From: Escherichia coli
Lineage (GTDB): Bacteria > Pseudomonadota > Gammaproteobacteria > Enterobacterales > Enterobacteriaceae
Assembly (NCBI RefSeq): GCF_024502345.1
Contig: NZ_JALDNN010000001.1
Strand: one strand, 5' to 3'
DNA length: 64,000 nucleotides
Part shown: positions 24,139 to 46,497 of the stretch, one piece after another
Numbering within the stretch: the stretch's first letter is position 1
How the letters are laid out: each line of letters starts with the position of its first letter
Program-made: the position numbers and the translations under genes
The notes under the pieces: generated by a model
Database searches by the model: none
What the model was told of the DNA's origin: nothing
What the model saw: only the letters and a program-made list of their open reading frames with translations

Positions 24139-25302
24139 TCAAACTCCCGGTTGTAGTTCCACAAGCATCTCGCGAGTCTTGCCGGCCCGCTCCACTAACA
24201 AGACCACAACATCTCCAACGTTCTTGTCGTCTAGCCGGGCCTGTAATGTGGTGACGTCGTCGACGGCGATACCGTCGATGCTGATAACGCGATCGCCGGG
24301 CACGATGCCGCCTGCGGTGACCTCGACGCCGACGAGCCCGGCCCTGTGCGCCGCCGAGCCCGGCGTCACGCGCAATACGAATACGCCCTTACTGCCGGTC
24401 AGCGCCTGCAGACGCGCGTTGAGCTGCTCATCCACCTCGATGCCCAGCGCCGGACGGATGTACTTGCCGGTCTTTATGAGTTGCGGCACCACGCGCATGA
24501 CGGTATCGACCGGCACCGCAAAGCCGATGCCGGCCGAGGCGCCAGACGGACTGTAGATGGCGGTATTGATGCCGATCAGCCGCCCAGCCGAATCGAGCAG
24601 CGGGCCACCGGAATTGCCGGGGTTGATAGCGGCGTCGGTCTGGATCAGGTGGTCAATGGCCGGGCCACTGGCGTCGCCGGAAAGGGTGCGGTCAAGCGCC
24701 GAGACGATGCCGGTGGTGAGCGTCCAGTCGAGCCCGAAGGGATTGCCAATGGCAAAGACCTTTTGCCCCACCTTGAGATCGGCACTGGTGCCCACCGGCA
24801 CCGCCGGCGGGCGCTTGAAGCCGACGCCAATCTTGAGTACCGCGATGTCGTGCGCAGGACTAGCGCCAACGAGCGCAGCCTGATAATCGCGACCGTCGGC
24901 CAGTTTGACCGTGGCAGACGATGCCCCCTGGATCACGTGGAAGTTGGTCACCACGTGGCCGGCATCGTCCCAGATGAAGCCGGAGCCGGTGCCGCGCGGC
25001 ACGGAAAAGACATTGCGCGACCAGACGTGACGCACTAGTTGTGCCGTGGTGATGTAAACCACCGACCCGCGCGATTTCTCGAACAGCTCGATGGTGGTTT
25101 TTTCGTCGGCGGCCAGGTCGCCGCGCGGCGTCACCGTGCGCTCCTGCGTTTCGTGGGGACTGAACCAGGCTTCGATGGCGGGCAGGAACTGCCACAGCAG
25201 CATGAGTGCGGCGATGCAGCCAGTGATGACGAGCCAGCGCCGGATGAAGCGGTCCGGCGCCGGGCGGCTGTAGGGGTCGGGGTAGGTCACGTCATTCTCC
25301 AT
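24139..25302 (-). CDS. degP: DegP/HtrA-family periplasmic serine protease
   Basis: 387-aa ORF with trypsin-like catalytic motif GNSGGPLLD and a C-terminal PDZ-like region. Confidence 0.85.
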   Translation of the reverse strand: MENDVTYPDPYSRPAPDRFIRRWLVITGCIAALMLLWQFLPAIEAWFSPHETQERTVTPRGDLAADEKTTIELFEKSRGSVVYITTAQLVRHVWSRNVFSVPRGTGSGFIWDDAGHVVTNFHVIQGASSATVKLADGRDYQAALVGASPAHDIAVLKIGVGFKRPPAVPVGTSADLKVGQKVFAIGNPFGLDWTLTTGIVSALDRTLSGDASGPAIDHLIQTDAAINPGNSGGPLLDSAGRLIGINTAIYSPSGASAGIGFAVPVDTVMRVVPQLIKTGKYIRPALGIEVDEQLNARLQALTGSKGVFVLRVTPGSAAHRAGLVGVEVTAGGIVPGDRVISIDGIAVDDVTTLQARLDDKNVGDVVVLLVERAGKTREMLVELQPGV

Positions 25303-25309
25303 GTTGAAA

Positions 25310-26299
25310 TCAGCGCCAAAGGCCGCCGGTGCGCCAGCGTGGCGGACGTGGTGATACGGTCACCTCGGGGACGAAACGGGCCGATGGAAACGGCGGCATC
25401 GCGGGCGGCGGAGCAAGTTCCAGCAAGCGCTCAATGCGTTCAGCCGTCGCCGGATGCGTGCGCAACCAGGAGGGTTCCGGATTGCCCCATCCGGGCAGCA
25501 GCCAGGCGCGCCAGGAGCGGCTCACCCGCTCGATCTTGGCGAGCGCCGAGGCCAGCCCGTGCGGGTCGCCGGTCAATTCGGCAGCGAGCCGGTCGGCGTC
25601 GAATTCGCGCACCCTGGACAAGCCCAACTGAGCCAGCAAGGCCAGCTGTGGCGCGACCGCCAGTAGAAGCAACGCGGGCCAATTGACTTCCGCGACTCCA
25701 AGCAGCAGCGCTGGCAAGCTGAGCACGATCGCAAGCTGCCCCAGCAGGGCCAGCAGATGGGTCAGCCGGCTGATGGAATCGGCCAGGCCCATGACACGCA
25801 AATCCTCGTTCGCAATATGCGCGATTTCGTGGCCGAGCACGCCGGTCAACTCGCGGGGCGTGAGGCTACGCAGCAGGCCGTCGGTCAGCGCGATGGCCGC
25901 GTGATGCTTCGAACCGGTGGCGAAGGCGTTGACGACCCCGCTGGGCACGTAGTGCGGTACCGGCACGGCAGGCAGCCCGGCCCGCGCCGCCAGTTCGCGC
26001 AACACAGCCCAAAGATCGGGCGCTTCATCCGGGTACAGGGGGCGTGCGCCATACAGCCGCAAGGTCAGTCCGGAGGCGGCCGCCGGTTCGAGCAGCAGGG
26101 TGAACCCCGCGGCCGCAAGCGCCAGCCACAGCCCGCCGTCACCCAACAGCAGGCTGCCAGCGACGGCGGCAATCCCGAGCAGGGTCAGCACCAACAGCGC
26201 GGTTTGCAGGCGATTGAGCCAGCGATGCCGCGCGCCGACATCCTGCGCGTGGCGCAGATCACGACTGATCATCTGAGCGTTCCCCGGCGGTCCGGTCAT
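25310..26299 (-). CDS. M48-family zinc metalloprotease (HtpX-like)
   Basis: HEXXH motif in LGHEIAHIANEDL; hydrophobic N-terminal segments. Confidence 0.8.
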   Translation of the reverse strand: MTGPPGNAQMISRDLRHAQDVGARHRWLNRLQTALLVLTLLGIAAVAGSLLLGDGGLWLALAAAGFTLLLEPAAASGLTLRLYGARPLYPDEAPDLWAVLRELAARAGLPAVPVPHYVPSGVVNAFATGSKHHAAIALTDGLLRSLTPRELTGVLGHEIAHIANEDLRVMGLADSISRLTHLLALLGQLAIVLSLPALLLGVAEVNWPALLLLAVAPQLALLAQLGLSRVREFDADRLAAELTGDPHGLASALAKIERVSRSWRAWLLPGWGNPEPSWLRTHPATAERIERLLELAPPPAMPPFPSARFVPEVTVSPRPPRWRTGGLWR

Positions 26300-26762
26300 C
26301 GCGCTCGCGCAGCAGCCAGTAAGTCACCCCGAGCGCCAGCGTAGCACCTGCGAGCGCGGCGATCTTGCCGGGGCTCGCCTCGGGGTCGAGGATCACGAAC
26401 TTGCGCGCCAGCGCGATCAGGCCGATGAGGATCACCGTCTTGACCTGGATGATGCTGTCCCGACGCAGCGCCACGCGCACGATGGAATGCTTGAATTCCA
26501 TGGCGATGAGCAGCGTCATGATCATGGCGAACACGGTCTGGAAGACCTTGTGATCAAGCGGATTGAACGCGTCGAGGATCAGCAGCGTGAAGACAATGGA
26601 CATGAGCTGGAGCAGCGACACCACGATGATCACGGCGATCACCGCAGACAGCACGAGCGCGATGACCTGCTCGAAGCGCTCGTAGAACGTCATCACGGCC
26701 CATTGGGCGCGAAAAGTTTTCGTCAGCGTAGGTTGCTTTTCATTCATCGCCATTTCCCTCAA
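26259..26762 (-). CDS. psiE: PsiE-family inner-membrane protein (phosphate-starvation-inducible)
   Basis: 167-aa multi-pass membrane ORF with a PsiE-like hydrophobic pattern. Confidence 0.75.
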   Translation of the reverse strand: MREMAMNEKQPTLTKTFRAQWAVMTFYERFEQVIALVLSAVIAVIIVVSLLQLMSIVFTLLILDAFNPLDHKVFQTVFAMIMTLLIAMEFKHSIVRVALRRDSIIQVKTVILIGLIALARKFVILDPEASPGKIAALAGATLALGVTYWLLRERDDRTAGERSDDQS

Positions 26763-27610
26763 TTTACATTGGCAACCATAACTTGGTTGCGCCCTTGTCT
26801 TTTTGCCTGGTAGAGCGCGCTGTCCGCCTGCTGCATCACCTGCTCGGAAGAGTTTAAGCGGACGTCGAGGGGAGCCACCCCCATGCTGGCGCTATAGCTG
26901 ATCGACACCTCTCCACACACCAGCGCTGTCGCCGCAACGTCCTGACGAAATCGCTCCGCCCATACTTGGGCGTCTTCTATCGATGCCGCTTCCAACAACA
27001 CAGCGAATTCCTCCCCCCCCCCAATCCGTGCAGCCATGTCGGTTGCGCGAACATGTTCCCTCAACCGTGAAGCAAAGTGCTTGAGCACCTCATCGCCGCA
27101 TCCGTGCCCATAGGTATCATTGATGCGCTTGAAGTGATCGATATCGCAGAGCACAAGTGCTGCTTGTATCTCCGGGCTGCGTTTGAGGCGCGCCCATTCC
27201 AGCTGTAATCGTTCGTTAAAAGCCCGCCGGTTCGACAAGCCGGTCAAGGGGTCGGTGATCGCCATGCGCAGCAACCGCTGCTCCATTTCCTTGCGAGAAG
27301 AGATGTCGAGCAGAGTGCCCACCATCAATTGCCTGCCCGTGTCACCCAGCCAACGACCGCGATCCAGCACCCAAATCCAAACGCCGGATCGATGACGAAC
27401 GCGGTACTCGCACTCCAATCGCTCCGACGGATTTTCTTGGTAAGCGCGCACCTTTGCCAGAACGACCGGTAAATCCTCCGGATGAATACGCGCTTGCCAT
27501 GCGGCATGGGTGGCGCCAATCTCCTCGTCGGAGGTCAAGCCGAACATCGCCAGACTGCGGGCAGAAAGCCTGAAGCTGTCGGTGGCAAGATCCCACTCCC
27601 AGAATCCCAA
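26759..27610 (-). CDS. PAS-GGDEF protein, putative diguanylate cyclase
   Basis: 283-aa ORF with GGDEF-domain signatures (RIGGGEEF active-site motif, DHFKRIND) after an N-terminal PAS-like region. Confidence 0.75.
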   Translation of the reverse strand: MGFWEWDLATDSFRLSARSLAMFGLTSDEEIGATHAAWQARIHPEDLPVVLAKVRAYQENPSERLECEYRVRHRSGVWIWVLDRGRWLGDTGRQLMVGTLLDISSRKEMEQRLLRMAITDPLTGLSNRRAFNERLQLEWARLKRSPEIQAALVLCDIDHFKRINDTYGHGCGDEVLKHFASRLREHVRATDMAARIGGGEEFAVLLEAASIEDAQVWAERFRQDVAATALVCGEVSISYSASMGVAPLDVRLNSSEQVMQQADSALYQAKRQGRNQVMVANVN

Positions 27611-27779
27611 CTCTGCGCCTTCCAGGGCGATGGCGATCCGTTCGTTGTCGTCGATTTTCGCTTGTTGGCGATGCTTCAGCTCGTCACGCCTGTGGCGATT
27701 GGTACGAGCAAAACGCCATAACGCAACCCCATGCCAACATTGGCAAGTAGCGACACCATCAGCCAGATGGTCGGCCCGT

Positions 27780-29498
27780 TCATGGTCTATCCCCGCCTGA
27801 CTGACTGAGTGCCTGCCGTAATTCCTCGATCCGGTGGTCGACTTGGTCGGCGTTGATGCCCAACATCAACAGTACCTGCTCGGCCAGTCCCAGTCCCGCA
27901 GCCAGGTACAACGGGTACAGTCTGACATTGGGCAGATTACGCAAAAGCTGGGCATCCGTTACGCGCTCAGTGGCCACCACCACGGACAAGCTCAGGCGGC
28001 GGTCGAGAACCGCCTGAGCGATACGCAGGGCCGTCTGCGGACGGGCAAACGTCAGCACCACCAGGCGGGCATGGGCCAATCCGGCGGCGGCCAGGGTGTC
28101 GAGCCGACTGGCATCGCCATACGACACCGGCGCCCCCATAGCACGCCCCGCTTCGACCCGTTGGCGGTCCGATTCCAGCAGCAAATGCGGTATGCCTGCC
28201 AGGCGCAGCGTTCGGCTCAGCAGCAGCCCGACGTCATCCGCCCCACAGATGATCACATGGTCGCGCAACGACCGCGCCCGCTCGGCGACTTCGCCTTCTT
28301 CGGCCTGCGGTGGCTGACCGAGTGCGCCCGAGCGGCTGAAAGCCCGCGCCCATCGGTCATGGTGTCGGATCAGGAGCGGTGCCAACCCCATGCTCAACAC
28401 CAGCGCCACCAGCATCGGTTGCACCATGGTGGCGGCGATCAGGTGCTGCTGCATGACCATGCCCAGGAGCAGCAGCGCAAACTCGCCGCCATGACCCAGC
28501 ACGATGCCTGCGCGCCAGGCGTCGAGCGCCGACAGGCGGGTTGCGCGCAGCGCCAGAAAGTTCAGCCCCATCTTGAGAGGCACCAAGGCCAACAGCCAAC
28601 CCAGTACCGCCAGCGGTGCGGCCACGATCTGCGCGGTGTCCAGCTGCAGGCCAATGGTCACGAAGAACAGGCCCGACAGCACATCACGAAAGGGCTTGAG
28701 GTGGCTTTCCATGTGGTGCCGGAAGTCGCTCTCGCCCAGGACCATGCCGGCGAGAAAGGCCCCCAGGGCGGCGGATACGCCGACGGCGTGTGCAGCAGCG
28801 GCTGCCGCCACGACCACGCACAAGGAGACCAGCACGAAGGATTCTTCGTGGCCCTGCCGCGCCACCCAGCCCAGCAGGCCATGCAACAGACGACGCGAGG
28901 CAACCGCCGCTGCCGCGAACAACACCAGCACGCCCAACACTTCGAGCAGCACGCTCTCGATCTTCGGCGAGTCGCCGCGCGCCCAGATCGCCAGCAGGGC
29001 CAGCAGGGGCACGCTGGCCAGGTCCTGAAAGACCAGCACGGCGATGGCACTGCGGCCGTGGCGGGTGGTGAGCTCGCCTTGGTCGGCCAGCTGTCGGCTG
29101 ACCAGCGCCGTGGACGACATGGCCGCTGCGGCGCCGAGCAGTGCAGCGCTCTGAGCTGGCTGACCCAACCCGATCAGCACCAGGGTCAGTGGCGCGGCCA
29201 CGACGACCATCTGCAAGCTGCCGGACGCCAGTACGGTCTTGCGAGTGAGCCAGAAGTGCCCCAGCGAGAATTCCAGTCCGACCATGAACAGCAGCAGGGC
29301 CACACCCAGTTCGGATATGAAAGTCAACGCCTCTCCCGGCGCGATCACACCGCTGACCGAGGGGCCCAGCAAGGCGCCGACGGCGAGGTAACCCAGCAAG
29401 GCGGGTACTCTGAACGCCGCCGTCGCCACCACCGAGAGGCTGCACGCCGCCAGCAGGATCAGGGTAGTGCCGAGCAAATCCTGCGGATTCCACGCCAT
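27780..29498 (-). CDS. kefB: KefB-like cation/proton antiporter with C-terminal TrkA-N domain; first five codons derive from the IS21-family end
   Basis: 572-aa ORF with multiple TM helices and a Rossmann-like VIICGADDVG; start ATGGCGTGGAATCCGCAG lies inside the IS terminal repeat plus target duplication. Confidence 0.8.
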   Translation of the reverse strand: MAWNPQDLLGTTLILLAACSLSVVATAAFRVPALLGYLAVGALLGPSVSGVIAPGEALTFISELGVALLLFMVGLEFSLGHFWLTRKTVLASGSLQMVVVAAPLTLVLIGLGQPAQSAALLGAAAAMSSTALVSRQLADQGELTTRHGRSAIAVLVFQDLASVPLLALLAIWARGDSPKIESVLLEVLGVLVLFAAAAVASRRLLHGLLGWVARQGHEESFVLVSLCVVVAAAAAAHAVGVSAALGAFLAGMVLGESDFRHHMESHLKPFRDVLSGLFFVTIGLQLDTAQIVAAPLAVLGWLLALVPLKMGLNFLALRATRLSALDAWRAGIVLGHGGEFALLLLGMVMQQHLIAATMVQPMLVALVLSMGLAPLLIRHHDRWARAFSRSGALGQPPQAEEGEVAERARSLRDHVIICGADDVGLLLSRTLRLAGIPHLLLESDRQRVEAGRAMGAPVSYGDASRLDTLAAAGLAHARLVVLTFARPQTALRIAQAVLDRRLSLSVVVATERVTDAQLLRNLPNVRLYPLYLAAGLGLAEQVLLMLGINADQVDHRIEELRQALSQSGGDRP

Positions 29499-29586
29499 TC
29501 GGACACTCAGCCCACGCTGATCCGGACACCTGTTCCACGGCCATTCGGACAGGCAGTCGGAGCGCAGCGACGCAGGGGTTGCATTG

Positions 29587-30342
29587 TTAGTCTGAGGTGC
29601 CCGGTGTCGTCAATTTCTTCACCCGCTTTCTCATCGATTCGCCCTTGAGGTTGATCCGATAAGCGTTGTGCACCAGGCGGTCGAGGATGGCATCGGCCAG
29701 GGTTGGATCGCCGATCAGTTCGTGCCAGTTGTCCACGGGCATTTGGCTGGTCACGAGGGTCGAGCGCTGGCCGTAGCGGTCGTCCAGTAGCTCCAGCATG
29801 TCGCGGCGCTGTTCGGCGGTGAACGGCGCCAGGCCCCAGTCGTCGAGGATCAGCAGGTCGGTCTTGGCGTAGCTGCTCATCAGCTTGGCGAAGCGCCCGT
29901 CGCCGTGGGCTAGGCCCAACTCTTCCAACAGGCGCGGCAAGCGCAGGTAACGCACGCTGTAGCCCTCTCGGCAGGCCTGGTGTGCCAGGGCGCAGGCCAG
30001 CCAGGTTTTACCCACGCCAGTCGGACCGTTGATGATCAGGTTGAGTCCGTCGCGCAGCCACTGGCCGCTACCCAGTTGCAGGATCAAGCCCTTGTCCAGC
30101 CCGCGCGGGGCACGGTAGTCGATGTCTTCGAGGCAGGCGCTGTGCTTGAGCCGGGCCTGGCGCAGGCGGCTGCTGAGGCGCTTGTCGTCGCGTTCGGTCA
30201 GTTCGCGGTCGACCAGCAGGCCGAGGCGTTCCACGAAGCTCAAGCTGTCGATGTCCGGGGTTTTCAGTTGCTCGGCGAGTGCCTTGAGCATGCCGGTCAG
30301 GCGCAGGGTCTGGAGCTTGTCCAGGGTCGGATGGGGCAGCAT
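29587..30342 (-). CDS. istB: IS21-family helper ATPase IstB
   Basis: Start MLPHPTLDKLQTLRL... (cat at 30340-30342); Walker [12 protein letters not shown]. Confidence 0.85.
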   Translation of the reverse strand: MLPHPTLDKLQTLRLTGMLKALAEQLKTPDIDSLSFVERLGLLVDRELTERDDKRLSSRLRQARLKHSACLEDIDYRAPRGLDKGLILQLGSGQWLRDGLNLIINGPTGVGKTWLACALAHQACREGYSVRYLRLPRLLEELGLAHGDGRFAKLMSSYAKTDLLILDDWGLAPFTAEQRRDMLELLDDRYGQRSTLVTSQMPVDNWHELIGDPTLADAILDRLVHNAYRINLKGESMRKRVKKLTTPGTSD

Positions 30343-30359
30343 GGTGGGATTCCTTGTGT

Positions 30360-31874
30360 TTAGTGGTAGTAGCCGGGGCCGCGCAGGTTGGCGTGGTCGT
30401 CCGGCAGCAGGGGCAGGTGCTGCTGGGCCAGCGGCAGATTTTCCAGCCCCTGGCGCAGGATCGATTCGAGGCTCTTGTAGCTGCACGCACCGAGGCTGAG
30501 GGCGCGACGGCAGGCCAACTCCAAGCACACTTCGCCATGGGTCTTGCCCAGGCGCAGGATGCCCAGGCAGGCCCGGTAGCCTTGGGTTGGGTGGATGCGC
30601 CGTTCGAGGATGTGGCTGATCACGCCGGCCGTGTTCGGCCCGGTCTGCTCAGCCCAGCGGATCAGCCGTTGTGGCGTCCACTCGGCGTGCTCGCGATGGC
30701 TCTTGGGCATGTGCTCGGCCTGTGTGCTGTGCCGGCCCTTGTGCGGTGAGCGAAGGTGGCTGGCCACCCGCTGATTGGCGTGGAAGCACTCCACCGTGCG
30801 CGCTGTCAGGCGTACTTCCAGTTGTTTCTTCACCAGTTGGTACGGCACCGAGTAGTAGTGCCCATCGACCTCGACGTGGTAGTCGATGTGCACCCGCGCC
30901 TTCTTCCACTCGGCATAGACGTAGGGCTGCTCCGGCAGTGGGCGCAGCGCTGGACGATCCAGGGCTTCGAAGGCCGAGTGCCGGGAGCCCGGCAGCTTGC
31001 GAAACGGTCGTCGGTTGAGCCGCTCCAGCAATAAGGCGATGGCGCTGTTGAGTTCGTCCAGGGAGAAGAACTGGCGGTTCCTCAGCGCGGCGAGGATCCA
31101 GCGCTCGACCACCTGCACGCCGACCTCGGCCTTAGCCTTGTCGCGCGGCTTACGCGCCCGCGCCGGCACCACCGCCACGCCATAGTGCTCGGCCAGATCG
31201 CGGTAGCTCGGGTTGATGTCCGGCTCGTAGCGATGGCTCTTACTCACCGCGCTTCGCAGGTTGTCCGGCACCACGATCTCCGGCACACCGCCGAGAAAGG
31301 AGAAGCAGCGGGCATGTGAGCCCAGCCAGTCAGGTAACTGCTGCGACCAGGTGGCTTCGGCGAAGGTGTAGCTGGATGCACCAAGCACCGCGACGAACAC
31401 CTGCGCCTGGCGGATCTCGCCGCTGTGGCGGTCGATCACCGGCACCGTCTGCCCGGCGTAGTCGACGAACAACTTCTCGCCAACGCGATGTTCCTGGCGC
31501 ATCACCACGTCCAGCTTGCCCTGCCAGGCTCGGTAGTGCTCGCAGAACCAGCTGTACTGAAAGCCTTTCGGCTGGCTCAGGCGATACTCCTGCCAGAGCA
31601 GCGCCAAGGTCACGCCCGGCCGGCGTAGCTCGGCGTGGATCATGGCCCAATCGGGCAGCGGTCGTTGCTCGGAGGGTACCGCCGCCGGTGGCGGGAACAG
31701 CTGCTGCTCCAACTCCGCATCGGACAACGAACAGGGCCAACTGAGGCCGCTGGCGGCAAAGCGACAGAGGTAATCACCGGCACTGCTGTGGCCTATGCCC
31801 AGACTGCGGGAGATCTTACGGACAGACAGCCCGCAATCGAACTTGAGGCGCAACACCTCACGGATTTTACGCAT
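30360..31874 (-). CDS. istA: IS21-family transposase IstA
   Basis: Start MRKIREVLRLKFDCGLSVRKISRSLG... (cat at 31872-31874); HTH then DDE region; the track ORF extends upstream into trx. Confidence 0.85.
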   Translation of the reverse strand: MRKIREVLRLKFDCGLSVRKISRSLGIGHSSAGDYLCRFAASGLSWPCSLSDAELEQQLFPPPAAVPSEQRPLPDWAMIHAELRRPGVTLALLWQEYRLSQPKGFQYSWFCEHYRAWQGKLDVVMRQEHRVGEKLFVDYAGQTVPVIDRHSGEIRQAQVFVAVLGASSYTFAEATWSQQLPDWLGSHARCFSFLGGVPEIVVPDNLRSAVSKSHRYEPDINPSYRDLAEHYGVAVVPARARKPRDKAKAEVGVQVVERWILAALRNRQFFSLDELNSAIALLLERLNRRPFRKLPGSRHSAFEALDRPALRPLPEQPYVYAEWKKARVHIDYHVEVDGHYYSVPYQLVKKQLEVRLTARTVECFHANQRVASHLRSPHKGRHSTQAEHMPKSHREHAEWTPQRLIRWAEQTGPNTAGVISHILERRIHPTQGYRACLGILRLGKTHGEVCLELACRRALSLGACSYKSLESILRQGLENLPLAQQHLPLLPDDHANLRGPGYYH

Positions 31875-32046
31875 GGACAAACGCTCCACGACGACCTCTC
31901 TGCTTCGAAAAAGAGGTCGATGGTAGTGAATAAATCCTGCGTAGCTGCCTGCCTGGAAAGTGTCCGGATGGCCGTGGAATCGGTGTCCGGATGCTCGTGG
32001 AATAAGTGTCCGGATCAGCGTGGAATCCGCACAAATCCTGCATCGG

Positions 32047-32487
32047 TCAGCGTCCCACCTGTGCAGAGGCCCAGCGCACGATGTCCTGCGAGCCCATGGC
32101 GCCTGCCTGGCGGGCGATCTCACGTCCGCCCTGGAACAGGGCGAGCGTCGGAATGCTGCGGATACCGAACTGCGCGGCCAGGTGGGGCTCAGCCTCGGTG
32201 TTCACCTTTGCCAGCCTGATCCCGGGTTCGAGCTGGCGCGCGGCTTGTTGAAACTGCGGCGCCATCATCTTGCACGGCCCGCACCAGGGCGCCCAGAAAT
32301 CGACCAGCAGCGGCAGATCGCTGCGCTCCACGTGGCGCGAGAACGTCGCCGTCGTCAACTCGATGGGCTCGCCGGTGAACAAGGGCTGCTGGCAGCGGCC
32401 GCAGTTGGAACGATCCGCGAGCTTGGCGGCCGGCACGCTGTTGATGGACTGGCAATGTGGGCAGACGATGTGGAGTTCATTTTTCAT
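32047..32487 (-). CDS. Thioredoxin with N-terminal zinc-finger extension (Trx2-like)
   Basis: 146-aa ORF with CPHC...CGRC N-terminal cysteines and active site WAPWCGPCK. Confidence 0.85.
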   Translation of the reverse strand: MKNELHIVCPHCQSINSVPAAKLADRSNCGRCQQPLFTGEPIELTTATFSRHVERSDLPLLVDFWAPWCGPCKMMAPQFQQAARQLEPGIRLAKVNTEAEPHLAAQFGIRSIPTLALFQGGREIARQAGAMGSQDIVRWASAQVGR

Positions 32488-33628: not shown

Positions 33629-33720
33629 GTCCTTTAGGGTTGTCCGCCCAGGTGAGTGGACCCGGGTGATTGGATATGTTGATTTTCAAAGATGATCTTA
33701 CGGTTTGGTTTTTCACGCCC

Positions 33721-34332: not shown

Positions 34333-34417
34333 GCGATATCTCCTTGATGGATCATGAGATCAGGAAAATCAAGCCTTCATCGCGAAGAGAGGGGCTATTC
34401 GCCCCTCTCTTGCGGTT

Positions 34418-35305: not shown

Positions 35306-35407
35306 GGTGATATGCCTCGTATGAGATAGTGAAAATAGGGGAATCTATTGGGGCCGACTGCGAATATCGCGAGACTGACCGATGGAGCAGTCGGCCCCTT
35401 CATCACC

Positions 35408-36322
35408 TCAAAACAGCTTTTGGATGCGCGTCTTCAACTCGTCGAACCATCCATTGCCGCTTTTGCCACCAGCCGACTTTTGCTCAATGGACTTCACCTG
35501 ATCGAAGATGGGTTTGAAGTCCTCCTTCTTGCCATAACCCAGGATTTGCGCCAGCTCGATCTCCGTGCGCACGGACGACAGCAAGGTGCTGAGCTCCTCG
35601 TTCTGCTTGGCATCGCGCTTGTCAGTCTCGGCCAGCTTTTCAGCTTTTGCCATCGCGGCTTCGGCCCGTAGCACGGGCAGAGGGAGTACAACTTGGGTGA
35701 CCACCAGCGTGTTCAGTGCTCGGGCGAGTTCCGCCTTGGCGTTGTCGATCTTGCCGCTGTCGATGAGCCGTGCGGCCGACTTGATCGCTGCCGGGTACGT
35801 TGCCATCGGCAGGTTGTCGGTTTCGATCACGATTTCGCTGGCAAGATTGGCAACAATGGGCCGTGCCTTTTGCACCTCGCCATCATCCAACAACTCCTGA
35901 GACAACTTGACCGCTTTCTTGACCGATTCCACGTCGGCGTGGATGTCATGGGTGATGACGCTTACATCGACGGGCGCCAAAGCAATTTTTGGCTCACGCG
36001 CCAATACCAGTTCCAGCTTTCCGCTGGCCAGTTCCAGCGCAGCGAGCGCCTCCTTGGTCTTCTTTGCATCAAGGAGGATCAATGCCTCATGGGTCTTGGC
36101 CAGCGCAGTGATTGCATCTTGGGCGAGTTCGGCGCGCTTCTTCGCGGCTTCCCGGGCGACCTTGTCATCTACCTGTGGCAGCGCCGCTTTGGATGCGGCA
36201 GAGGGTGCTGCAGCACCTGGGCTAGAACCTGCCGCCGATTGGGCCAGAGCCGGTCCGCTCAGTCCGACGACGACCGCCAGGGCAAGTGCGGAGAAGATGT
36301 ATTGTGGCTGTTTGATATTCAT
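35408..36322 (-). CDS. yfdX: YfdX-family periplasmic protein (copy 1)
   Basis: Start MNIKQPQYIFSALALAVVVG... (cat at 36320-36322) with signal peptide; paralogous to 34418-35305. Confidence 0.8.
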   Translation of the reverse strand: MNIKQPQYIFSALALAVVVGLSGPALAQSAAGSSPGAAAPSAASKAALPQVDDKVAREAAKKRAELAQDAITALAKTHEALILLDAKKTKEALAALELASGKLELVLAREPKIALAPVDVSVITHDIHADVESVKKAVKLSQELLDDGEVQKARPIVANLASEIVIETDNLPMATYPAAIKSAARLIDSGKIDNAKAELARALNTLVVTQVVLPLPVLRAEAAMAKAEKLAETDKRDAKQNEELSTLLSSVRTEIELAQILGYGKKEDFKPIFDQVKSIEQKSAGGKSGNGWFDELKTRIQKLF

Positions 36323-36343
36323 GATGTTGGACTCCAATTGAAG

Positions 36344-36802
36344 TTAATTGACTGAAATTTCAATCTGTTTCGGTTTGGCTTGCTCGGCCTTGACAAGCCG
36401 CACTTCCAGCACGCCGTCTTTCATGGAAGCCGTCACCTTGGTCGGATCAACGTTGTCAGGCAAGACAAAGCTGCGCACAAAGCGGCCATACGCACGTTCG
36501 ATGCGGTGGAACTTCTTGCCCTGCTCCTCTTTTTCCAGTTTGCGCTCGCCGCTGATGGTGAGCACACCGTTTTCCGCGCTGACGCGCACGGCATCCTTGG
36601 GGACCTCCGGCAGATCCAGCTTGAGGAGGAATGCGTTCTCATCCTCGCTGATGTCCACCATTGGTGCCCAGTCCGCCGTGGTCATGGCTTCGTTGCCGGT
36701 ACGGGCGCCCTGTCGCTGGGGTGTCCGTCCCAACATCGTCGCCAGGCGGTTTTGCAATTCATCCAGTTCCCGGAAGGGGTCCCACGGAGTCAATGCAGAC
36801 AT
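36344..36802 (-). CDS. Small heat shock protein (Hsp20/alpha-crystallin family)
   Basis: Start MSALTPWDPFRELDEL... (cat at 36800-36802) after AAGGAG; alpha-crystallin domain (GVLTISGERK..., GVLEVRL). Confidence 0.85.
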   Translation of the reverse strand: MSALTPWDPFRELDELQNRLATMLGRTPQRQGARTGNEAMTTADWAPMVDISEDENAFLLKLDLPEVPKDAVRVSAENGVLTISGERKLEKEEQGKKFHRIERAYGRFVRSFVLPDNVDPTKVTASMKDGVLEVRLVKAEQAKPKQIEISVN

Positions 36803-36896
36803 ATCGGTTCTCCTTGAACAATGCCGGTGAATTGGATGACGCACCGAACAGAGCCGCCGGCTCACTCTGAATAGCGCCTATTACTTTTCGTTTCTA

Positions 36897-38231
36897 TCAA
36901 GAACAGGCCATGAGCAAGAATAGTCCATGAAGCAATAGCGCATGTCCCATCTCGTGATAGGCCACGGTTTCCCGCTCCTTCGGATTGAGCACACGGTTCT
37001 TCCTTTCCAGGCCGGCCACGATGCGCTCGATGGCGGCGGTGAAGTCTTGCAGCTCCACAGCCTGCGCCTTGCGCCGCGTCGCGTTCAGCGCTGCTTCGTT
37101 CACGAGATTGGCCAGATCAGCGCCGGAAAAGCCGGTGGTCAACGCCGCCACCTGTTCCAGATCTACACCGTGGGCCAGGGTGATCTTCTTGACATGGACC
37201 TTCAGGATATCCAGGCGACCTTTCTTGTCGGGACGGTCCACCAGCACCTGACGGTCGAAGCGACCGGCACGAAGCAAGGCCTGATCGAGGATTTCGGGGC
37301 GGTTGGTGGCGGCGAGGATGATCAGCCCGACCGAGCTGTCGAAGCCATCCATTTCGGTGAGCAACTGGTTCAGCGTCTGCTCACGCTCGTCGTGTCCGCC
37401 GGTCGGTCCTCCGACACCGCGTGCGCGGCCCAAAGCATCCAGCTCATCAATGAAGATGATCGCCGGCGCCTGCCCGCGCGCCTGCTCGAACAGGTCGCGC
37501 ACGCGCGCCGCACCCACGCCGACGAACATCTCGACGAACTCCGAGCCTGAGATGGAAAAGAACGGTACCCCGGCCTCGCCCGCCACGGCCTTGGCCAGCA
37601 GGGTCTTGCCCGTGCCCGGCGGGCCAACCAGCAACACACCTTTCGGGATGCGCGCGCCGAGGCGGCCGTAATCCTGCGGGTTCTTCAGGAAGTCGACGAT
37701 TTCGACCAGCTCGGCCTTGGCCTCATCGACACCCGCGACATCGGCAAAGGTGACGCCGGTGTTCTTCTCCATGAACACCTTGGCGCGGCTCTTGCCGATG
37801 CTCAGGAAGCCGCCCATGCCCTGCTTCTCGGCGAAGCGGCGGAACAGGAAGAACCAGACGCCGAAGAAGGCCACCGCCGGCAGAATCCAGGAGAGCACAT
37901 CACGTAGCCAGGTGCTTTCCACCACCCGCGCGTAGGGCACCTCGTACTTGGACAGCCGCTCGGCCAGGTCGGGTTCGACGCGAGTGGCCACGATGGTGGT
38001 CTTGCCCCGGCTGTCCGGCGATTTCAGGCGCCCGGTGACCGTGCGGTCCGACACCAGCACTTCGGCGACGCGCCCCTCGGCCAGCGCCTTCTCGAATTCG
38101 CTGTAGGGCACGGGCTCGACGGTCTTGGCCGCCTGCCAGTAGTTCTGCAGCGTCAGCAGCAACAGGCCGGCGACGATCCAGTAGCCAATGTTCCATTGAT
38201 CTTTCTTTTCCATGGGCAATGTTCCTCGCAA
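36897..38231 (-). CDS. ftsH: FtsH-like AAA+ protease, C-terminally short (ends about 20 residues after HEXXH)
   Basis: 444-aa ORF with TM N-terminus, Walker A GPPGTGKT, Walker B IIFIDELD, then AYHEMGHAL and an early stop. Confidence 0.75.
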
Positions 38232-38240
38232 GTCGTGCCG

Positions 38241-39701
38241 CTAGAGAATGGGGGTGAACAGACGGGCCACCCCGTCGCGCAAGCGCATGGCCAGCGGGTG
38301 GGCGCGCAACGCCTTCGCCGATATCTCGCCCGACACATCACGAGCGGCATCAAAAAGGGATGACAGCCGCGTAGACAACGCGGTGTCGTACACCTCCACA
38401 TTGAACTCGAAGTTGAGGCGCAAACTGCGCGCATCCCAATTGGCCGAACCCAGGCAGCACCACGCTCCGTCTACCAGCATCAGCTTGCTGTGGTCGAACG
38501 GGCCAGGCCGTTCGAAGATGCGCACACCGTGCTCCAGCACCTGCCAGTAGTGGGCGCGCGCGGCCCATTGCACCGTGGGATGGTCGCCGTTTGCGGGCGT
38601 CAGCACGTCGATACGCACGCCGCGCAACGCGGCCGTGCTCAGCGCCGCGATCATCGGCTGATCGGGGACGAAGTAAGGTGTCCAGATGCGCACCGAATGC
38701 TTCGCCGCGCTCAAAGCGCCCATGAAGGTCCAGCGCATCCGGTCCAGGGCCTCGTCGGGACCGGCCTCGATGCCGCGCGCCCAACTGGTTCCCGGCTCAT
38801 CAGCCGTTACGGGCGGTTCGCCCCAGAAACCCTCGTTGAGCCGCTCGCCCGTGGTATCGCACCAATCATCGGTGAAGCTCCGCATCAGATGCTCCACCAC
38901 CGGCCCGCGCAGACGAAAGTGCAAATCGTGACAGGCCTGGTCCGGCGCATCGGGCCGCCAGTACGGGCTGAAGATGTTCAATCCGCCGGTGAAACCCGTC
39001 TCGCCATCGATCACCAGCAGCTTGCGGTGATTCCGCAGATGCGCGGCATGCAGGCGCGCGGGAATCAATGTCGGGTTGAACGTCGCCGCCGGAACGCCGG
39101 CGCGCTGCAAGGCGCGGTAGGCGCTGCGGGGCGTCCAGCGGGCATACACGTCGTCGATCAGCACCCGCACTTGCACGCCGCGCTCATGAGCCCGGCGCAG
39201 CGCATCGACGAACTGCGCCCCGATGCCTTGGCTGTCGAAGATGTACGAGGTCAAGGCGACGCTGTACCGCGCCGATTCGATGGCGGCGAGCATGGCCGGG
39301 TAGGCCTGCTCGCCATCGACAAGCGGCTCGATGCGGTTGCCGCCGGTCAGCGACTGGCCGGTGGCGCGTCCCACCAGGTGGGCCAGACCGGCAAGTGGCG
39401 GCGATACAGCCTCGGGTATCGTGGGCGAGAGATCCTGCCGAACAGCAGGATCTGCCCCCGGGAAGAGCCGCCGCGCCCGCCGCTGGTAACGGTTGATGCC
39501 GAACAGCCCATACAGCAGCGAACCGCCCAGCGGCAGCAAGGCGATCAGCAGTACCCACAGCGTGGCCGATCGAGGGTCACGCTTGTAGATGACCGCATGC
39601 CCCGCTGTGGGGATAGCGACCGCCAGCGACACGAGGGTGGCTGCCCATGTCAGCCCATTGGGGTCGGACACGACAGCCTCCCATCGCTCAAGATTCGCCA
39701 T
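38241..39701 (-). CDS. cls: Cardiolipin synthase / phospholipase D family
   Basis: Start [11 protein letters not shown]... (cat at 39699-39701); two HKD motifs (HRKLLVIDGE; HSKLMLVDGAWCCLGSANWD). Confidence 0.8.
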   Translation of the reverse strand: MANLERWEAVVSDPNGLTWAATLVSLAVAIPTAGHAVIYKRDPRSATLWVLLIALLPLGGSLLYGLFGINRYQRRARRLFPGADPAVRQDLSPTIPEAVSPPLAGLAHLVGRATGQSLTGGNRIEPLVDGEQAYPAMLAAIESARYSVALTSYIFDSQGIGAQFVDALRRAHERGVQVRVLIDDVYARWTPRSAYRALQRAGVPAATFNPTLIPARLHAAHLRNHRKLLVIDGETGFTGGLNIFSPYWRPDAPDQACHDLHFRLRGPVVEHLMRSFTDDWCDTTGERLNEGFWGEPPVTADEPGTSWARGIEAGPDEALDRMRWTFMGALSAAKHSVRIWTPYFVPDQPMIAALSTAALRGVRIDVLTPANGDHPTVQWAARAHYWQVLEHGVRIFERPGPFDHSKLMLVDGAWCCLGSANWDARSLRLNFEFNVEVYDTALSTRLSSLFDAARDVSGEISAKALRAHPLAMRLRDGVARLFTPIL

Positions 39702-42543
39702 CCGCTGACTTCTTCTTGCGCGCAGGCTTGCTCGCGTCGCCAGGCGGTGCCTCGGCCACGTCCGCGGCATCGGGCTTTTCAGGCTCAGCCGACTTCGCGG
39801 GTGGCTCCTGGCGCTCGAAGACCACCCGTTCGGCCTTGTCGTCCCAGCGGGCGTTGGCGTGATCACCCTTGCCGATACCGCCACCCAGCATCTCGCGCGC
39901 CAGCGCGGTTTCCAGCTCGCTGCGGATCAGCCGCTTGAGCTCACGCGCGCCGAACTCGGGCTTGTAGCCTTCCTCCGCGAAGTGGTCGATCAAGGTCTGA
40001 TCGAAGGTCAGCGTCACGCCCTGGCTGGCGGCGTTGCGGGCCACACGATCAAGCTGCAGGCCGACGATATGGCGGATTTCCTCCTTGCCCAGCGCATGGA
40101 AGACGATGATCTCGTCGATGCGGTTGATGAACTCGGGGCGGAAGTGTCCGCGCAGCACGTCCATCACCTCGGACTTGGTCTTCTCGTATTCCTCGCCGGC
40201 GGCGCCACCGGCCTTCAGCCGACGCTGGATGATGTCCGAGCCCAGGTTCGAGGTGGCGATGATGATGGTATTGGTGAAATCCACCACCCGGCCCTTGCCG
40301 TCGGTGAGCCGCCCGTCGTCGAACACCTGCAGCAGGATGTTGTAGACGTCGGGGTGCGCTTTTTCGATCTCATCGAGCAGCAACACGCTGTAGGGCTTGC
40401 GACGCACCTTCTCGGTGAGCTGGCCGCCCTCGTCATAGCCCACATAACCCGGAGGCGCGCCCACCAGGCGTGCCACGGCATGGCGTTCCCCGTACTCGGA
40501 CATGTCGATGCGCAGCAGCGCACCTTCATCGCCATAGATGGACTCGGCCAGCGCCTTGGCGAGCTCGGTCTTGCCCACGCCGGTCGGCCCAAGGAACAGG
40601 AAAGTCGCCACCGGCTTGTCGCCTTCGCGCAGGCCCGCGCGCGACAACCGCACGGCATCGGCCACCGCGCGCACCGCTTCGTCCTGGCCCACCAGGCGCT
40701 CATGCAGCCGCTGCTCCAGATGCAGCAGCTTCTCGCGTTCTTCCACCGTCAGCTCGTTGACCGGAATGCCGGTCAGGCGCGAGACGATCTGCGCGACATG
40801 CTCGGCCTTGACTTCGGCGCTGCCCGAGGCGCGCTCGCGTTCCCATTCCTCGACGAGCTGCTTGAGTTCAGTCTCCTTGGCCTCGATGCGCTTGCCCAGC
40901 TCGGCGGCCTTGTCGTACTGCTTGCGCGAGGCCATGTAGTCCTGCTCACGCCGCAACTGGTGCAGTTCGGACTCCAGCTCCTGCACCGCCACCGGGCGAG
41001 CCGTGGCCGACAGCTTCACGCGTGCGGCCGCCTGGTCAAGCAGGTCGATGGCCTTGTCAGGCAAAAAGCGCGCGGTGATGTAGCGGTCCGACAACTCGGC
41101 GGCGGCGATGATCGCATCCTCGGTGATGCTGACCTTGTGGTGCGCCTCGAAGGTGTCGCGCAGGCCGCGCAGGATCATCATGGTCTGCGCTACCGTCGGC
41201 TCGGGCACCATCACCGGCTGGAAACGACGCTCCAGCGCGGCGTCCTTCTCGATGTACTTCTGATACTCGTTGAGCGTGGTGGCGCCGATCAGGTTCAGTT
41301 CGCCGCGCGCCATCATCGGCTTGAACACGTTGGCCACGTCCAGCCCGCCTTCGCCGCCACCCTGGCCTGCACCGACGATGGTGTGCACTTCATCGATGAA
41401 GAGAATCATCTCGCCCTGGTGCTCGGTCACTTCCTTGAGCACCTTCTGCACGCGCTCCTCGAACTCGCCGCGATACTTGGCGCCTGCCACCATGGCGTTG
41501 ATGTTGAGCTCGACCAGACGCTTGTCGCGCAGCGTCTCGGGCACTTCACCGGCGACCATGCGCTGCGCCAGCCCTTCGACAATGGCGGTCTTGCCGACGC
41601 CGGGCTCACCGATCAACACCGGGTTGTTTTTCTTGCGCCGGGCCAGCACCTCGATGGTGGTCTCGATCTCCTGCGCACGGCCGATGACTGGATCGAGTTT
41701 GCCCTCGCGCGCCATCTTGGTGAGGTCGCGCGAGTATTTATCCAGCTCGGGCGTGTTGGTCGGCGTCTCGGCGCGGCCATCCTCGGCCCCTTTGCCGACC
41801 ACCTTGCTTACCTGCTGGCGCAGCGCTTGCGGCGTGAGGCCGTAACGGCGCAGCAGGTTGGCCGCCAAACCTTCGCCTTCCTCAGCGAGCCCGATCAGGA
41901 AATGCTCCGGCCCGACATAAGAGTGGCCGAGTTCGTTGGAGGCCACGAAAGCGCGGCTGAGCGCGTCCTTGACCCGGGGCGACACGCCGACTTCGCCCTC
42001 GAACGGCTTCTCGCCGCGCTTGGCTTCGGATTCGATCTGTCGCTTGAGGTCATCGACCTTGATCTTGAACTGTCCCAGGATGGTCTTCACCACGTCGCTG
42101 TCGGATAGCGCCAGCAGCAGGTGTTCGGTATCGACTTCGGCGCGCCCGAACTCTGCAGCGTGTCGGGCGGCCTCCTGCAATAGGGCCTCGGACTGTTCGC
42201 TGATACGGCTGGCGAGCCCACTGCCGCGACGGCGCGCAGTGCCCGTACCGGCCGGGGCGGGTTCGCCGAACGAGGCATCGACCACCTCGTCGGTATCGGC
42301 CGCCATGGACGGCGAATCGTCACCGATGCGGAAGAAGTCGCTGCCGAGGAAGTCTTCGAACAAGCCGCTGCGCGAGCCAAACAAGGCTTCCAGCGGCGAG
42401 ACGGTGCGCTTTTGCTGGCGCGCCAGTTGGCGATAGTGATCGTCACACAACAGCATGGTGCTGTGGCGACCATTGAGATTGGCTTCCACCCGCACCGTGG
42501 CGGGCTGGCCGCAGACCTGGCATTGTTTTCTGGCCATGCTCAT
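39688..42543 (-). CDS. clpK: ClpK/ClpG-type AAA+ disaggregase (ClpB-like with N-terminal zinc-binding domain)
   Basis: Start [17 protein letters not shown]... (cat at 42541-42543) after GGAG; two AAA+ modules (GEPGVGKT and GPTGVGKT). Confidence 0.9.
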
Positions 42544-42634
42544 GCTCCTTGAGAGGACTGATTTGACGAGGCGCCGAAGGTCACGGCGCCTCGCCATTCA
42601 CTTGGTTTTTCTGTAGAGAACAAGCCGATCGGCG

Positions 42635-43204
42635 TCAGCCGTTGATCGGGATCGAGCGGCCCTGCTTGGGCGCACTGGCCTCGCGCTTTTCCATTGTGAT
42701 CGTGAGTACGCCGTTCTTGAAAGCGGCCTTGATCGTGTCCTGGTTGGCATCGGTCGGCAGGTTCAGAGCGCGCTGAAAGCTGCCGTAGGAGCGCTCCACC
42801 CGGTGGAAACCGCCGTCTTTGCTTTCCTGCTCCTGACGCTTTTCACCGCGAACCAGCAGCACGTCGTTGTCGAGCGTGATATGGATGTCTTTTTCCTCGA
42901 CGCCGGGAACCTCCAAAGAAATCTTGTACTGCTTGTCGGTCTCCTGGATGTCCAGCGCCGGCTTCAGCAGGCCCGGCCAGTCCGACGGCCAGCGTGGCAT
43001 GGCCAGCGCCGGAAAGCCGAAGCCTCGAAACGTGTCGTCGAAGAGGCGGTCGATCTCGCGGTGCAATTGCAGGATGGGACTGACGGGCCCACCCGCTACC
43101 GGCAGGTCATTGCGCTGCACCGGCAGCGAGGCAGTGCTCTGTTGTTCTTCCTGCTCCTTCTTGAACCAGTTCCAGGGAGCCAACTTCTTGAAATCAATGT
43201 CCAT
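42635..43204 (-). CDS. Small heat shock protein (Hsp20 family)
   Basis: Start MDIDFKKLAPWNWF... (cat at 43202-43204) after GGAGGTG; alpha-crystallin domain. Confidence 0.85.
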   Translation of the reverse strand: MDIDFKKLAPWNWFKKEQEEQQSTASLPVQRNDLPVAGGPVSPILQLHREIDRLFDDTFRGFGFPALAMPRWPSDWPGLLKPALDIQETDKQYKISLEVPGVEEKDIHITLDNDVLLVRGEKRQEQESKDGGFHRVERSYGSFQRALNLPTDANQDTIKAAFKNGVLTITMEKREASAPKQGRSIPING

Positions 43205-43239
43205 GTCACACCTCCAGAACAAAAATTGAAGACTCTCGC

Positions 43240-43521
43240 TCACTCCGTTTGCCTGCGGCTATGGATAGCGCGCCCAGGCAACACGGGATGTTTCGCTGAC
43301 TTCGGCTGCTCATCTGTACGTATCACCTCCTTCTTTCTGCCTGCTTGGATCTGATCATTGATCCATCGATCGATTTCACTTTGACGAAACCGCCACGTCC
43401 CGCCGACCTTGAAGGCCGGAATCTCCCCGTGCGCGGCGAGCCGGTAGAGCGTCCGCTTGCCGACCTTTAAGTAGGTAGCCAACTCGTCGAGTGTGAAGAT
43501 CGCCTGCTGGCGCGCTGTCAT
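43240..43521 (-). CDS. Helix-turn-helix DNA-binding protein (MerR/excisionase-like), first gene of the heat-resistance island
   Basis: Start MTARQQAIFTLDELATYLKVGKRTLYRLAAHGEIPAFKVGGTWRF (cat at 43519-43521); HTH pattern. Confidence 0.65.
   Translation of the reverse strand: MTARQQAIFTLDELATYLKVGKRTLYRLAAHGEIPAFKVGGTWRFRQSEIDRWINDQIQAGRKKEVIRTDEQPKSAKHPVLPGRAIHSRRQTE

Positions 43522-44659: not shown

Positions 44660-46497
<1,838 letters not shown>

Follow-up and report, generated by a model that had tools for sequence, protein, structure and literature searches.

What is the GC-rich block that lies in this 64,000-nt stretch of an Escherichia coli chromosome (contig NZ_JALDNN010000001.1 of assembly GCF_024502345.1, hereafter the window), how did it come to be there, and would it still protect its host from heat and chlorine? 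An earlier note on positions 24139-43521 had seen a heat-resistance and protein-quality-control island in an aspV-associated setting. With high confidence, we identify this locus as the transmissible heat- and chlorine-resistance island called the LHR (locus of heat resistance) or tLST (transmissible locus of stress tolerance), in its variant tLST2c, carried by a Tn7-like transposon within the aspV island. Earlier publications already cover the island itself (2010-2015), the LHR2/tLST2 type (2017), the TdcA-type cyclase on a Tn7-like LHR transposon (2021), the association with Tn7-like elements and the tLST2c variant (2025), and the base-level anatomy presented here is a refinement of that work.

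The identification rests first on gene content. Gene products were assigned with NCBIfam curated models and Pfam, gene integrity was judged by comparing the translated genes of the tLST3b reference, all of which are intact there, with the window by tblastn, and relatives were sought by megablast of positions 24000-44100 against 5,426 complete E. coli genomes. NCBIfam gave no match for YfdX, HdeD, orf11 or the Tns proteins; Pfam then recognized YfdX, DUF308 and TnsA-E, and found no domain in orf11. The locus runs from the initial base of orf1 (43521) to the final base of the degP-GI stop codon (24139), and the long open reading frames (ORFs) whose third-position GC is high are all found on the minus strand; intergenic gaps measure -14 to 172 bp. 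The order of transcription is orf1 (helix-turn-helix, HTH), small heat shock protein gene sHsp20, ClpK, Cls, a truncated FtsH, sHsp-GI, YfdX1, YfdX2, HdeD, orf11, Trx, an IS21-family insertion sequence (IS), KefB, a defective diguanylate cyclase (DGC), PsiE, an HtpX-like protease and DegP:

43240-43521, minus: orf1 (dna), MerR/excisionase-type HTH protein, 93 aa (TIGR01764; 100% identical to tLST3b)
42635-43204, minus: sHsp20 (orf2), 189 aa, intact (99.5% to tLST3b)
39688-42537, minus: clpK (clpG-GI), disaggregase, 949 aa, intact (NF033606; 99.9% to tLST3b, gapless)
38241-39671, minus: cls-GI, cardiolipin synthase of the PLD type, 476 aa, intact (97.9% to tLST3b)
36897-38213, minus: ftsH-GI, pseudogene (NCBIfam FtsH model, positions 8-432 of 598)
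36344-36802, minus: sHsp-GI (orf7), 152 aa, intact (99.3% to tLST3b)
35408-36322, minus: yfdX1 (pscA), 304 aa (Pfam YfdX PF10938, E=3.8e-35; tblastn)
34418-35305, minus: yfdX2 (pscB), 295 aa (91% to tLST3b, full length)
33721-34332, minus: hdeD-GI (orf10), DUF308 membrane protein, 203 aa (two Pfam DUF308 domains; 78% aa identity to tLST3b)
32477-33622, minus: orf11, hypothetical protein, 381 aa, intact, between hdeD and trx (71% aa identity to the tLST3b allele)
32047-32487, minus: trx-GI (orf12), TrxC-like thioredoxin, 146 aa, intact (NCBIfam; tblastn)
29482-32031, minus: IS21-family insertion sequence, 2,550 bp (NCBIfam IS21 transposase and IstB helper; junction comparison)
30360-31874, minus: istA (NCBIfam IS21 transposase)
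29587-30342, minus: istB (NCBIfam IstB helper)
27780-29498, minus: kefB-GI (orf13), CPA2 K+/H+ antiporter resembling KefB/KefC, 572 aa, ORF open (reference residues 2-568 aligned, gapless)
26759-27783, minus: tdcA-like PAS-GGDEF diguanylate cyclase gene (orfE/orfB), pseudogene (NCBIfam GGDEF and PAS; alignment to the 342-aa allele)
26259-26747, minus: psiE-GI (orf14), 162 aa, intact (88.9% to tLST3b, full length)
25310-26272, minus: orf15, HtpX-like M48 zinc metalloprotease, 320 aa, intact (99.1% to tLST3b, full length)
24139-25290, minus: degP-GI (orf16), S1C serine protease, 383 aa, intact (NCBIfam Do-family; 99.7% to tLST3b over 383/383 aa)

Every gene that the earlier note had named is thus present in the order it gave, on one strand and with short gaps as it had said; its gene string had left out orf11, istAB and the frameshifted DGC gene, and had passed over the truncation of ftsH. 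The collapse of the identification that it had envisaged, through frameshifts in clpK or the sHsp genes or a lack of collinearity with known loci, did not occur: ClpK, sHsp20 and sHsp-GI are all full length, and the locus is collinear with the published tLST2, tLST3b and tLST3a references. When compared with tLST3b, orf1, sHsp20, ClpK, Cls, sHsp-GI, YfdX1, YfdX2, HdeD, orf11, Trx, PsiE, orf15 and DegP align end to end without a frameshift, and KefB does so from residue 2. The head of the locus, orf1-sHsp20-clpK, is adjacent and intact (93/93, 189/189 and 949/949 aa at 99.5-100% identity), and ClpK scores 2152.9 bits against NF033606 (cut-off 1900) over model positions 1-949. The envelope module sHspGI-yfdX1-yfdX2-hdeD is complete, its genes being all full-length but divergent alleles (78-99% aa identity), and every ORF of the oxidative module orf11-trx-kefB-psiE-orf15-degP is open, with the IS between trx and kefB. 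As a side observation, clpK is annotated as 24 bp longer in strain G3/10 and 12 bp longer in ABWA45 than it is in the window, and its last 27 bases here (39688-39714) do not align to either of these genomes while being gapless relative to tLST3b; the ClpK C-terminus seems to be a variable stretch.

Base composition sets the locus apart as anticipated, at 62.5% GC as opposed to 49.6% for positions 1-23616 and 51.4% for 52627-64000. The GC-rich block does not end at 43521, however, but extends to 52626, because the island is joined to the tnsEDCBA genes of a Tn7-like transposon.

Which member of the family is this? Island sequence was found in 165 of the 5,426 complete E. coli genomes, and four of them, G3/10 (human feces), C 236-04A, ABWA45 (wastewater) and LR536430.1, match over 100% of its length at 99.6-99.7% identity; the RefSeq annotation of near-identical genomes uses the names clpK, trx-GI, hsp20-GI and yfdX1. 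Against the reference loci, whose accessions were taken from the survey of Li and colleagues (PMC12603250), coverage and identity are 87% and 95.5% for tLST2 (CP061749), 87% and 94.2% for tLST3b (CP061755), and 80% and 90.9% for tLST3a (CP010237), with the ~13% of the locus left uncovered corresponding to the IS. The screening rule of that survey is at least 90% nucleotide identity and at least 80% coverage relative to a reference variant (PMC12603250), and the window satisfies it for all three; by the standards of the field, then, this is an LHR/tLST locus. Within the family, tLST2c is defined by the lack of both orfC and orfD, an IS between trx and kefB, and a deletion in ftsH (PMC12603250). 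All of this is seen here: orf11 is an uninterrupted 381-aa frame, not split by orfC/orfD, and the orfC/orfD segments of strain 81 (locus L002, 12505-14473) and 2273-PO3 (locus L005, 9481-11446) have no counterpart in the window. The alignment to reference loci that had been called for thus assigns it to tLST2c, an LHR2-family locus with an IS and a truncated ftsH. This variant makes up 6.3% of tLST-positive complete E. coli genomes and is frequent in sequence types ST635 and ST399 (PMC12603250). We also considered describing the locus as a tLST3b that has acquired lesions, which its gene content would fit; the degP-kefB part with its common DGC frameshift is closer to tLST2, however, and the tLST2c label matches the structure exactly.

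The vehicle is a complete Tn7-like transposon, of which the tLST is the cargo:

23617-52626, minus: Tn7-like transposon, 29,010 bp (perfect inverted termini; sister copies)
23617-23850, no strand: left end, with three spaced 20-nt repeats resembling TnsB sites (23624-23643, 23769-23788 and 23824-23843)
52563-52626, no strand: right end, with three contiguous 20-nt repeats resembling TnsB sites, beside tnsA
44883-46505, minus: tnsE (Pfam TnsE_C)
46498-48000, minus: tnsD (Pfam TniQ and TnsD)
48002-49612, minus: tnsC (Pfam AAA_22/TniB)
49605-51692, minus: tnsB (Pfam Mu-transpos_C; a 686-aa reference TnsB aligns from 51665)
51679-52506, minus: tnsA (Pfam TnsA_N and TnsA_C)
43600-44882, no strand: spacer between the tLST and tnsE, with a conserved 87-aa ORF (43752-44012) and relics of genes for a transposase and an ATP-binding protein (as annotated in G3/10, 873.10 and LR536430.1, where this stretch is identical)

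The element begins with TGTGGGATGCAAATAAAG on its left and closes with TTTGCATCCCACA on its right, giving TGT...ACA termini, and the arrangement of repeats, spaced on the left and contiguous on the right next to tnsA, is the layout of Tn7. Both boundaries agree with the comparison to element-free genomes, whose matches stop at 23616/23617 and start again exactly at 52627. All five genes of tnsABCDE are intact and their products are 99.8-100% identical to those of the copy on the 873.10 plasmid. The same 29-kb unit is found elsewhere between 5-bp duplications, namely CCAGT in G3/10, GACGT on the 873.10 plasmid (inside an IS1) and CATTT in LR536430.1, and these sister copies therefore document real transposition. 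The tns module occurs in 37 of the 5,426 E. coli genomes, as well as on plasmids of Klebsiella, Escherichia, Acinetobacter, Pseudomonas and others. Tn7 elements flanking tLSTs have been reported already (PMC8290217); the main text of the survey that defined tLST2c contains no occurrence of Tn7 (PMC12603250).

The spacer between tLST and tnsE is identical in all of the Tn7-borne tLSTs examined; it includes the remnant of an IS-type transposase, split and on the opposite strand, and 102 bp of an ATP-binding-protein gene. This is probably the site at which the transposon first captured a tLST. In strain 81, tRNA-Phe and an integrase adjoin the Tn7-like unit with its tLST, and in 2273-PO3 that unit lies in a prophage-like region.

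How did the transposon reach its present position? The genes that come after tRNA-Asp (62156-62232) are dnaQ and rnhA, as expected at aspV, so the aspV-island setting proposed earlier is right as to place; as to the vehicle it needs amending, as the locus is borne directly by the Tn7-like transposon and not by the aspV island as such. The window copy has no 5-bp target duplication (left flank TTCAC, right flank CATTT). Its right flank is identical to the LR536430.1 site (CATTT...), and its left flank runs unbroken into sequence 99.5% identical to the tla1 region of strain A30. The two flanks, joined as they would be at an empty site, are contiguous in none of the 5,426 genomes, which rules out a simple insertion. 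Because the right flank is that of LR536430.1, the left flank lies in a truncated tla1, and no genome joins the two, the window copy descends from the aspV-island insertion seen in LR536430.1, and the DNA to its left was later lost or exchanged. The change on the left was either a deletion that stopped at the tip of the transposon or a recombination event involving a second copy.

In strain A30 a type VI secretion system (T6SS) cluster, T6SS-1, with VgrG, Hcp and Tss genes, lies between tla1 and aspV; none of the T6SS-1 core genes was found within the window. The remaining features of the flanks are side observations. The tla1/DUF4123 chaperone gene (22289-23616 region) is cut off exactly at the left end of the Tn7-like element and is preceded by a Tli1a-family immunity gene (22660-23202). 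Farther left, an IS903-type element of the IS5 family (1,057 bp, 21247-22303), whose 18-bp inverted repeats (GGCTTTGTTGAATAAATC) are perfect and whose target duplication (ATCCATTTC) is 9 bp long, disrupts the T6SS phospholipase effector gene tle1. On the right, positions 53908-56965 differ from LR536430.1 by four clean deletions of ~1.4, 2.4, 4.5 and 2.3 kb with junction overlaps of 2-5 bp, through which a type III restriction-modification system has mostly been lost (mod is gone and res truncated), together with helicase-related and neighboring genes.

It might be asked whether the absent target duplication and the patchy right-hand island are nothing more than assembly errors. Four clean deletions within 13 kb relative to LR536430.1, a differing junction at the transposon end and homopolymer lengths that vary among assemblies (see below) are what such errors might produce. 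Yet the transposon termini are base-perfect, the left flank is continuous with the A30 tla1 region at 99.5% identity, the right flank is identical to LR536430.1, and the sequence has no Ns or collapsed repeats that would point to error, so that we give this explanation hardly any credence.

Descent from the LR536430.1-type insertion thus being our preferred account of the site, what has happened inside the locus? Three lesions distinguish it, the first of them in ftsH-GI. The predicted protein keeps residues 1-427 of 609, followed by 11 unrelated codons and a stop. The transmembrane segments, the AAA+ module and the HEXXH motif (HEMGH) are retained, and the ORF stops six residues past HEMGH with model positions 433-598 absent and the M41 domain incomplete; ~528 bp of the 3' end have been deleted. 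RefSeq annotates the same ftsH as 'missing C-terminus' in G3/10 and ABWA45.

The second lesion is the IS21-family element, which has TG...CA termini and is flanked by a 7-bp target duplication, GGATTTG, at 29475-29481 and 32032-32038. A duplication of 7 bp is typical of this family. The element sits in codons 2-4 of kefB. In strain 81, where the junction is free of the IS, it reads trx-TGA-ccg-ATG-CAG-GAT-TTG-CTC; in the window the IS is placed after ATGCAGGATTTG, GGATTTG is repeated at its other side, and precise excision would restore TGAccgATGCAGGATTTGCTC. An in-frame ATG in the final bases of the IS lets KefB begin MAWNP-QDLLGT instead of MQDLLGT, so that the first five codons (MAWNP) are IS-derived and native kefB sequence resumes from 29483. 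Pseudomonas plasmids hold most of the close relatives of the IS (78 of the 90 plasmid records, the best at 95.9% identity), which are annotated as ISPpu23-family. As a side observation, G3/10 has 46 bp more at the left end of the IS (31958-32027), within short direct repeats (ATCCGGACAC...TTCCACG); these repeats look like multiple IstA-binding sites, and the two genomes differ in the copy number of the terminal repeats.

The third lesion affects the PAS-GGDEF gene behind kefB. Its intact allele, in tLST3b, encodes 342 aa and overlaps the kefB stop codon (ATGA); in the window, a 1-bp deletion at codon 19 leads to a stop after 35 codons, a frameshift common to all tLST2-type loci examined. A residual ORF of 283 codons (26759-27610) contains a run of 10 Gs where the intact allele has 7, yielding RIGGGEEF and thus changing GGEEF to GGGEEF. 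This poly-G tract (27005-27030, minus strand) has 7 Gs in tLST3b, 8 in each of two tLST2 loci and 9 in ABWA45, while the window and G3/10 both have 10; either the site is a hot spot of slippage, or some of the assemblies contain a homopolymer sequencing error. The 283-codon frame is annotated in G3/10, and we considered whether it might be a functional short cyclase. This is unlikely: its TTG start lies inside the PAS N-terminal region, the first 59 of 342 residues are missing, the active-site motif has an additional Gly, and the tract varies in length among near-identical loci, ABWA45 having 9 Gs and a split gene. The PAS-GGDEF gene corresponds to tdcA, which encodes the thermosensory cyclase of P. 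aeruginosa CF39S, a GGEEF protein of 342 aa located downstream of kefB on a Tn7-like transposon (PMC8012707), and in the window it has neither that length nor that motif. It is tempting to speculate that in lineages with an intact 5' end the G7-G10 tract could act as a slipped-strand on/off switch for cyclic di-GMP synthesis.

Do these lesions mean that the island is a decaying passenger, its defects accumulating under relaxed selection and its phenotype no longer useful? The truncated ftsH, the frameshifted DGC gene with its drifting poly-G tract, the IS in kefB, the absence of a target duplication and the deletion or disruption of adjoining island genes could all be taken that way. However, all of the heat-resistance genes whose role has been proven by deletion (PMC8407380) are full length, at 87-100% aa identity to functional references (78% for HdeD against tLST3b), tnsABCDE is intact, and tLST1, the commonest functional variant, is also without ftsH and cls (PMC8290217). 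We regard outright decay as very unlikely.

The preferred view, a tLST2c whose core remains sound, gains a historical dimension from its ancestry, as the locus is a recombinant of three ancestries. As judged by pairwise blastn, positions 23617-29484 are 98.8% identical to tLST2. For the block from trx to sHsp-GI (32012-36905), identity to tLST2 and tLST3b is no more than ~87%, and to every other E. coli tLST it is 81-83%; a plasmid of Pseudomonas fragi NMC25, a strain from meat, matches this block at 98% overall and at 99.9% over orf11-hdeD-yfdX2. The remainder (36937-52626), comprising the truncated ftsH, cls, clpK, sHsp20, orf1 and tnsEDCBA, shares 99.05% identity with tLST3b. The transition from the second block to the third (36905-36937) coincides with the break in ftsH. 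Because ancestry changes at that break, and because the P. fragi-type locus has neither cls nor ftsH, recombination between tLST3b-like and P. fragi-type loci would be the simplest explanation of the truncation.

Can the truncation, the IS and the altered left flank be placed in one history? In a setting rich in Pseudomonas, such as meat plants or wastewater, a Tn7 element of the tLST3b/tLST2 kind would have recombined with a tLST of the P. fragi plasmid type, in a crossover that truncated ftsH, and would have gained its IS from Pseudomonas. Once the element had inserted into the aspV island, the adjoining DNA, which may have included the T6SS-1 cluster, would have been removed precisely from the left end of the transposon onward, by a deletion or by recombination between copies. 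We offer this sequence of events tentatively, as a reconstruction with distinctly less than an even chance of being correct.

What phenotype, finally, should be expected? sHsp20 and sHsp-GI hold heat-denatured proteins, which the stand-alone disaggregase ClpK/ClpG resolubilizes; the periplasmic chaperones YfdX1 and YfdX2, together with HdeD, protect the envelope; and damage by oxidants and chlorine is countered by Trx, KefB, PsiE, the M48 protease and DegP. A cloned LHR confers heat resistance (PMC4563881), a plasmid-borne LHR2 gives LHR2-dependent heat resistance (PMC5383660), and truncation of ftsH is irrelevant to it (PMC5383660, PMC8290217). Deletion of sHsp20, clpK, sHspGI, pscA/yfdX1, pscB/yfdX2 or hdeD lowers both heat and chlorine resistance, and deletion of kefB lowers chlorine resistance (PMC8407380). 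The published evidence for heat and chlorine tolerance covers tLST1, tLST2 and tLSTa. In the window nothing interrupts the first two modules behind orf1, and both are intact. Because of this, and because the deletion-proven genes are all open, the sequence predicts that the strain is very probably highly heat resistant, in keeping with the extreme tolerance that had been foreseen. The parallel prediction of chlorine and oxidant tolerance is weaker and the contribution of the oxidative module to chlorine tolerance uncertain, because kefB-psiE-orf15-degP lie behind 2.55 kb of IS and the start of kefB is not native; their expression would depend on read-through from istAB or from farther upstream. 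The ftsH-GI and tdcA-like pseudogenes should contribute nothing.

A more generous assessment would be that the locus is fully functional, with the IS transcriptionally transparent or promoter-bearing, all three modules expressed, and the strain extremely tolerant of heat and of chlorine and other oxidants alike. The in-frame ATG in the IS end does restore the kefB frame, istAB and kefB share a strand and are not separated by any terminator-like site, the IS-bearing variant has been kept at 99.6-99.7% identity in four genomes from sources that include feces and wastewater, and it is frequent in the wastewater- and sink-associated ST635 and ST399 (PMC12603250), in habitats where chlorine tolerance should be selected. 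On the other hand, the native translational coupling of trx and kefB (TGAccgATG) has been lost and 2.55 kb of foreign DNA intervene; a scan of the trx-IS-kefB region for promoters and terminators found nothing above shuffled expectation, with neither a sigma-70-like outward promoter nor a terminator-like site between istB and kefB; and tLST1, a possible source of the phenotype, is present as well in many tLST2c carriers (PMC12603250). Full function seems to us a serious possibility, not far short of an even chance.

A tLST2c that would confer heat resistance more surely than oxidant tolerance is the reading that we prefer, and several points weigh against it. The polar effect of the IS on kefB-degP is only presumed, simple scans having shown neither a promoter nor a convincing terminator. 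The envelope-module alleles of the window, whose function is only predicted, are divergent, with HdeD and orf11 78% and 71% identical in amino acid sequence to the tLST3b alleles. Strains of clonal complex CC399 often carry tLST1 as well (PMC12603250), and each of the four closest genomes has a second tLST-like place in its chromosome. As for the variant label, Li et al. 2025 name the element between trx and kefB in tLST2c as ISPa85 (PMC12603250), a name that may apply to the window IS. They also state a 'DNA duplication between kefB and orfE' for the tLST2a-c group, leaving the carrier variants unspecified (PMC12603250), and no such duplication appears in the alignment of the window to CP061749 or CP061755. 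Strain 81 has ~25 extra bp over the degP-kefB segment, and by gene coordinates some 27 of these fall between kefB and the GGDEF gene (gap of 196 vs 169 bp).

What matters for surveillance is that an E. coli whose chromosome has the ClpK/sHsp/YfdX set intact will likely withstand the 60 °C treatments and sanitizers of food processing and water treatment, and that this set could pass to plasmids, because the transposon that carries it has its transposition genes intact. The P. fragi-like envelope module points to Pseudomonas as a donor pool. Specialists may find use for the anatomy of the IS insertion with its re-start of kefB, for the crossover that truncates ftsH, and for the P. fragi-like envelope module itself.

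Among known systems, the closest is tLST2c itself (Li, Jarocki, Wyrsch, Cummins and Djordjevic 2025, NPJ Antimicrob Resist), which like the window carries cls and the DGC gene (orfE) and from which we detected no structural difference. tLST2/LHR2 (Boll et al. 2017; CP061749 of E. coli 2273-PO3; strain 81) has the same Tn7-like carrier, the same orf1-sHsp20-clpK-cls-ftsH head, and a degP-kefB part that is 98.8% identical and shares the 1-bp DGC frameshift, but it differs in its full-length ftsH (609 aa), in having orfC and orfD (a mechanosensitive channel) within orf11, in lacking the IS, and in an envelope module that is only ~87% identical. tLST3b (CP061755, on a plasmid of E. coli 873.10) has the gene content of the window apart from the lesions, and the same transposon, with a 5-bp duplication there; in contrast, its DGC is an intact 342 aa, the length of TdcA, its ftsH is intact, it has no IS, and its envelope module is 87% identical. 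More distant is tLST1/LHR1 of E. coli AW1.7 (Mercer et al. 2015), which has the same three modules and core heat-resistance genes at a GC content of ~62%, but measures ~15 kb, has cls and ftsH reduced to fragments (orf4-6), lacks the DGC, and has an envelope module ~81% identical to that of the window. Beyond E. coli, the P. fragi NMC25 plasmid (CP021133) is 98-99.9% identical over trx-orf11-hdeD-yfdX2-yfdX1-sHspGI and the part of kefB that was retrieved, and has the same Tn7-like right part, whereas it lacks cls and ftsH, is 91.7% identical in the clpK region and has no IS between trx and kefB. Finally, the Tn7-like transposon of P. aeruginosa CF39S with tdcA, and TLPQC-1/tLSTa of clone C (Almblad et al. 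2021; Lee et al. 2015), carry an LHR-syntenic cargo on a Tn7-like element with a PAS3-GGEEF cyclase gene directly after kefB, just as in the window; the difference is that TdcA of CF39S is an intact thermosensor, whereas the gene here is frameshifted and has an extra Gly in GGEEF.

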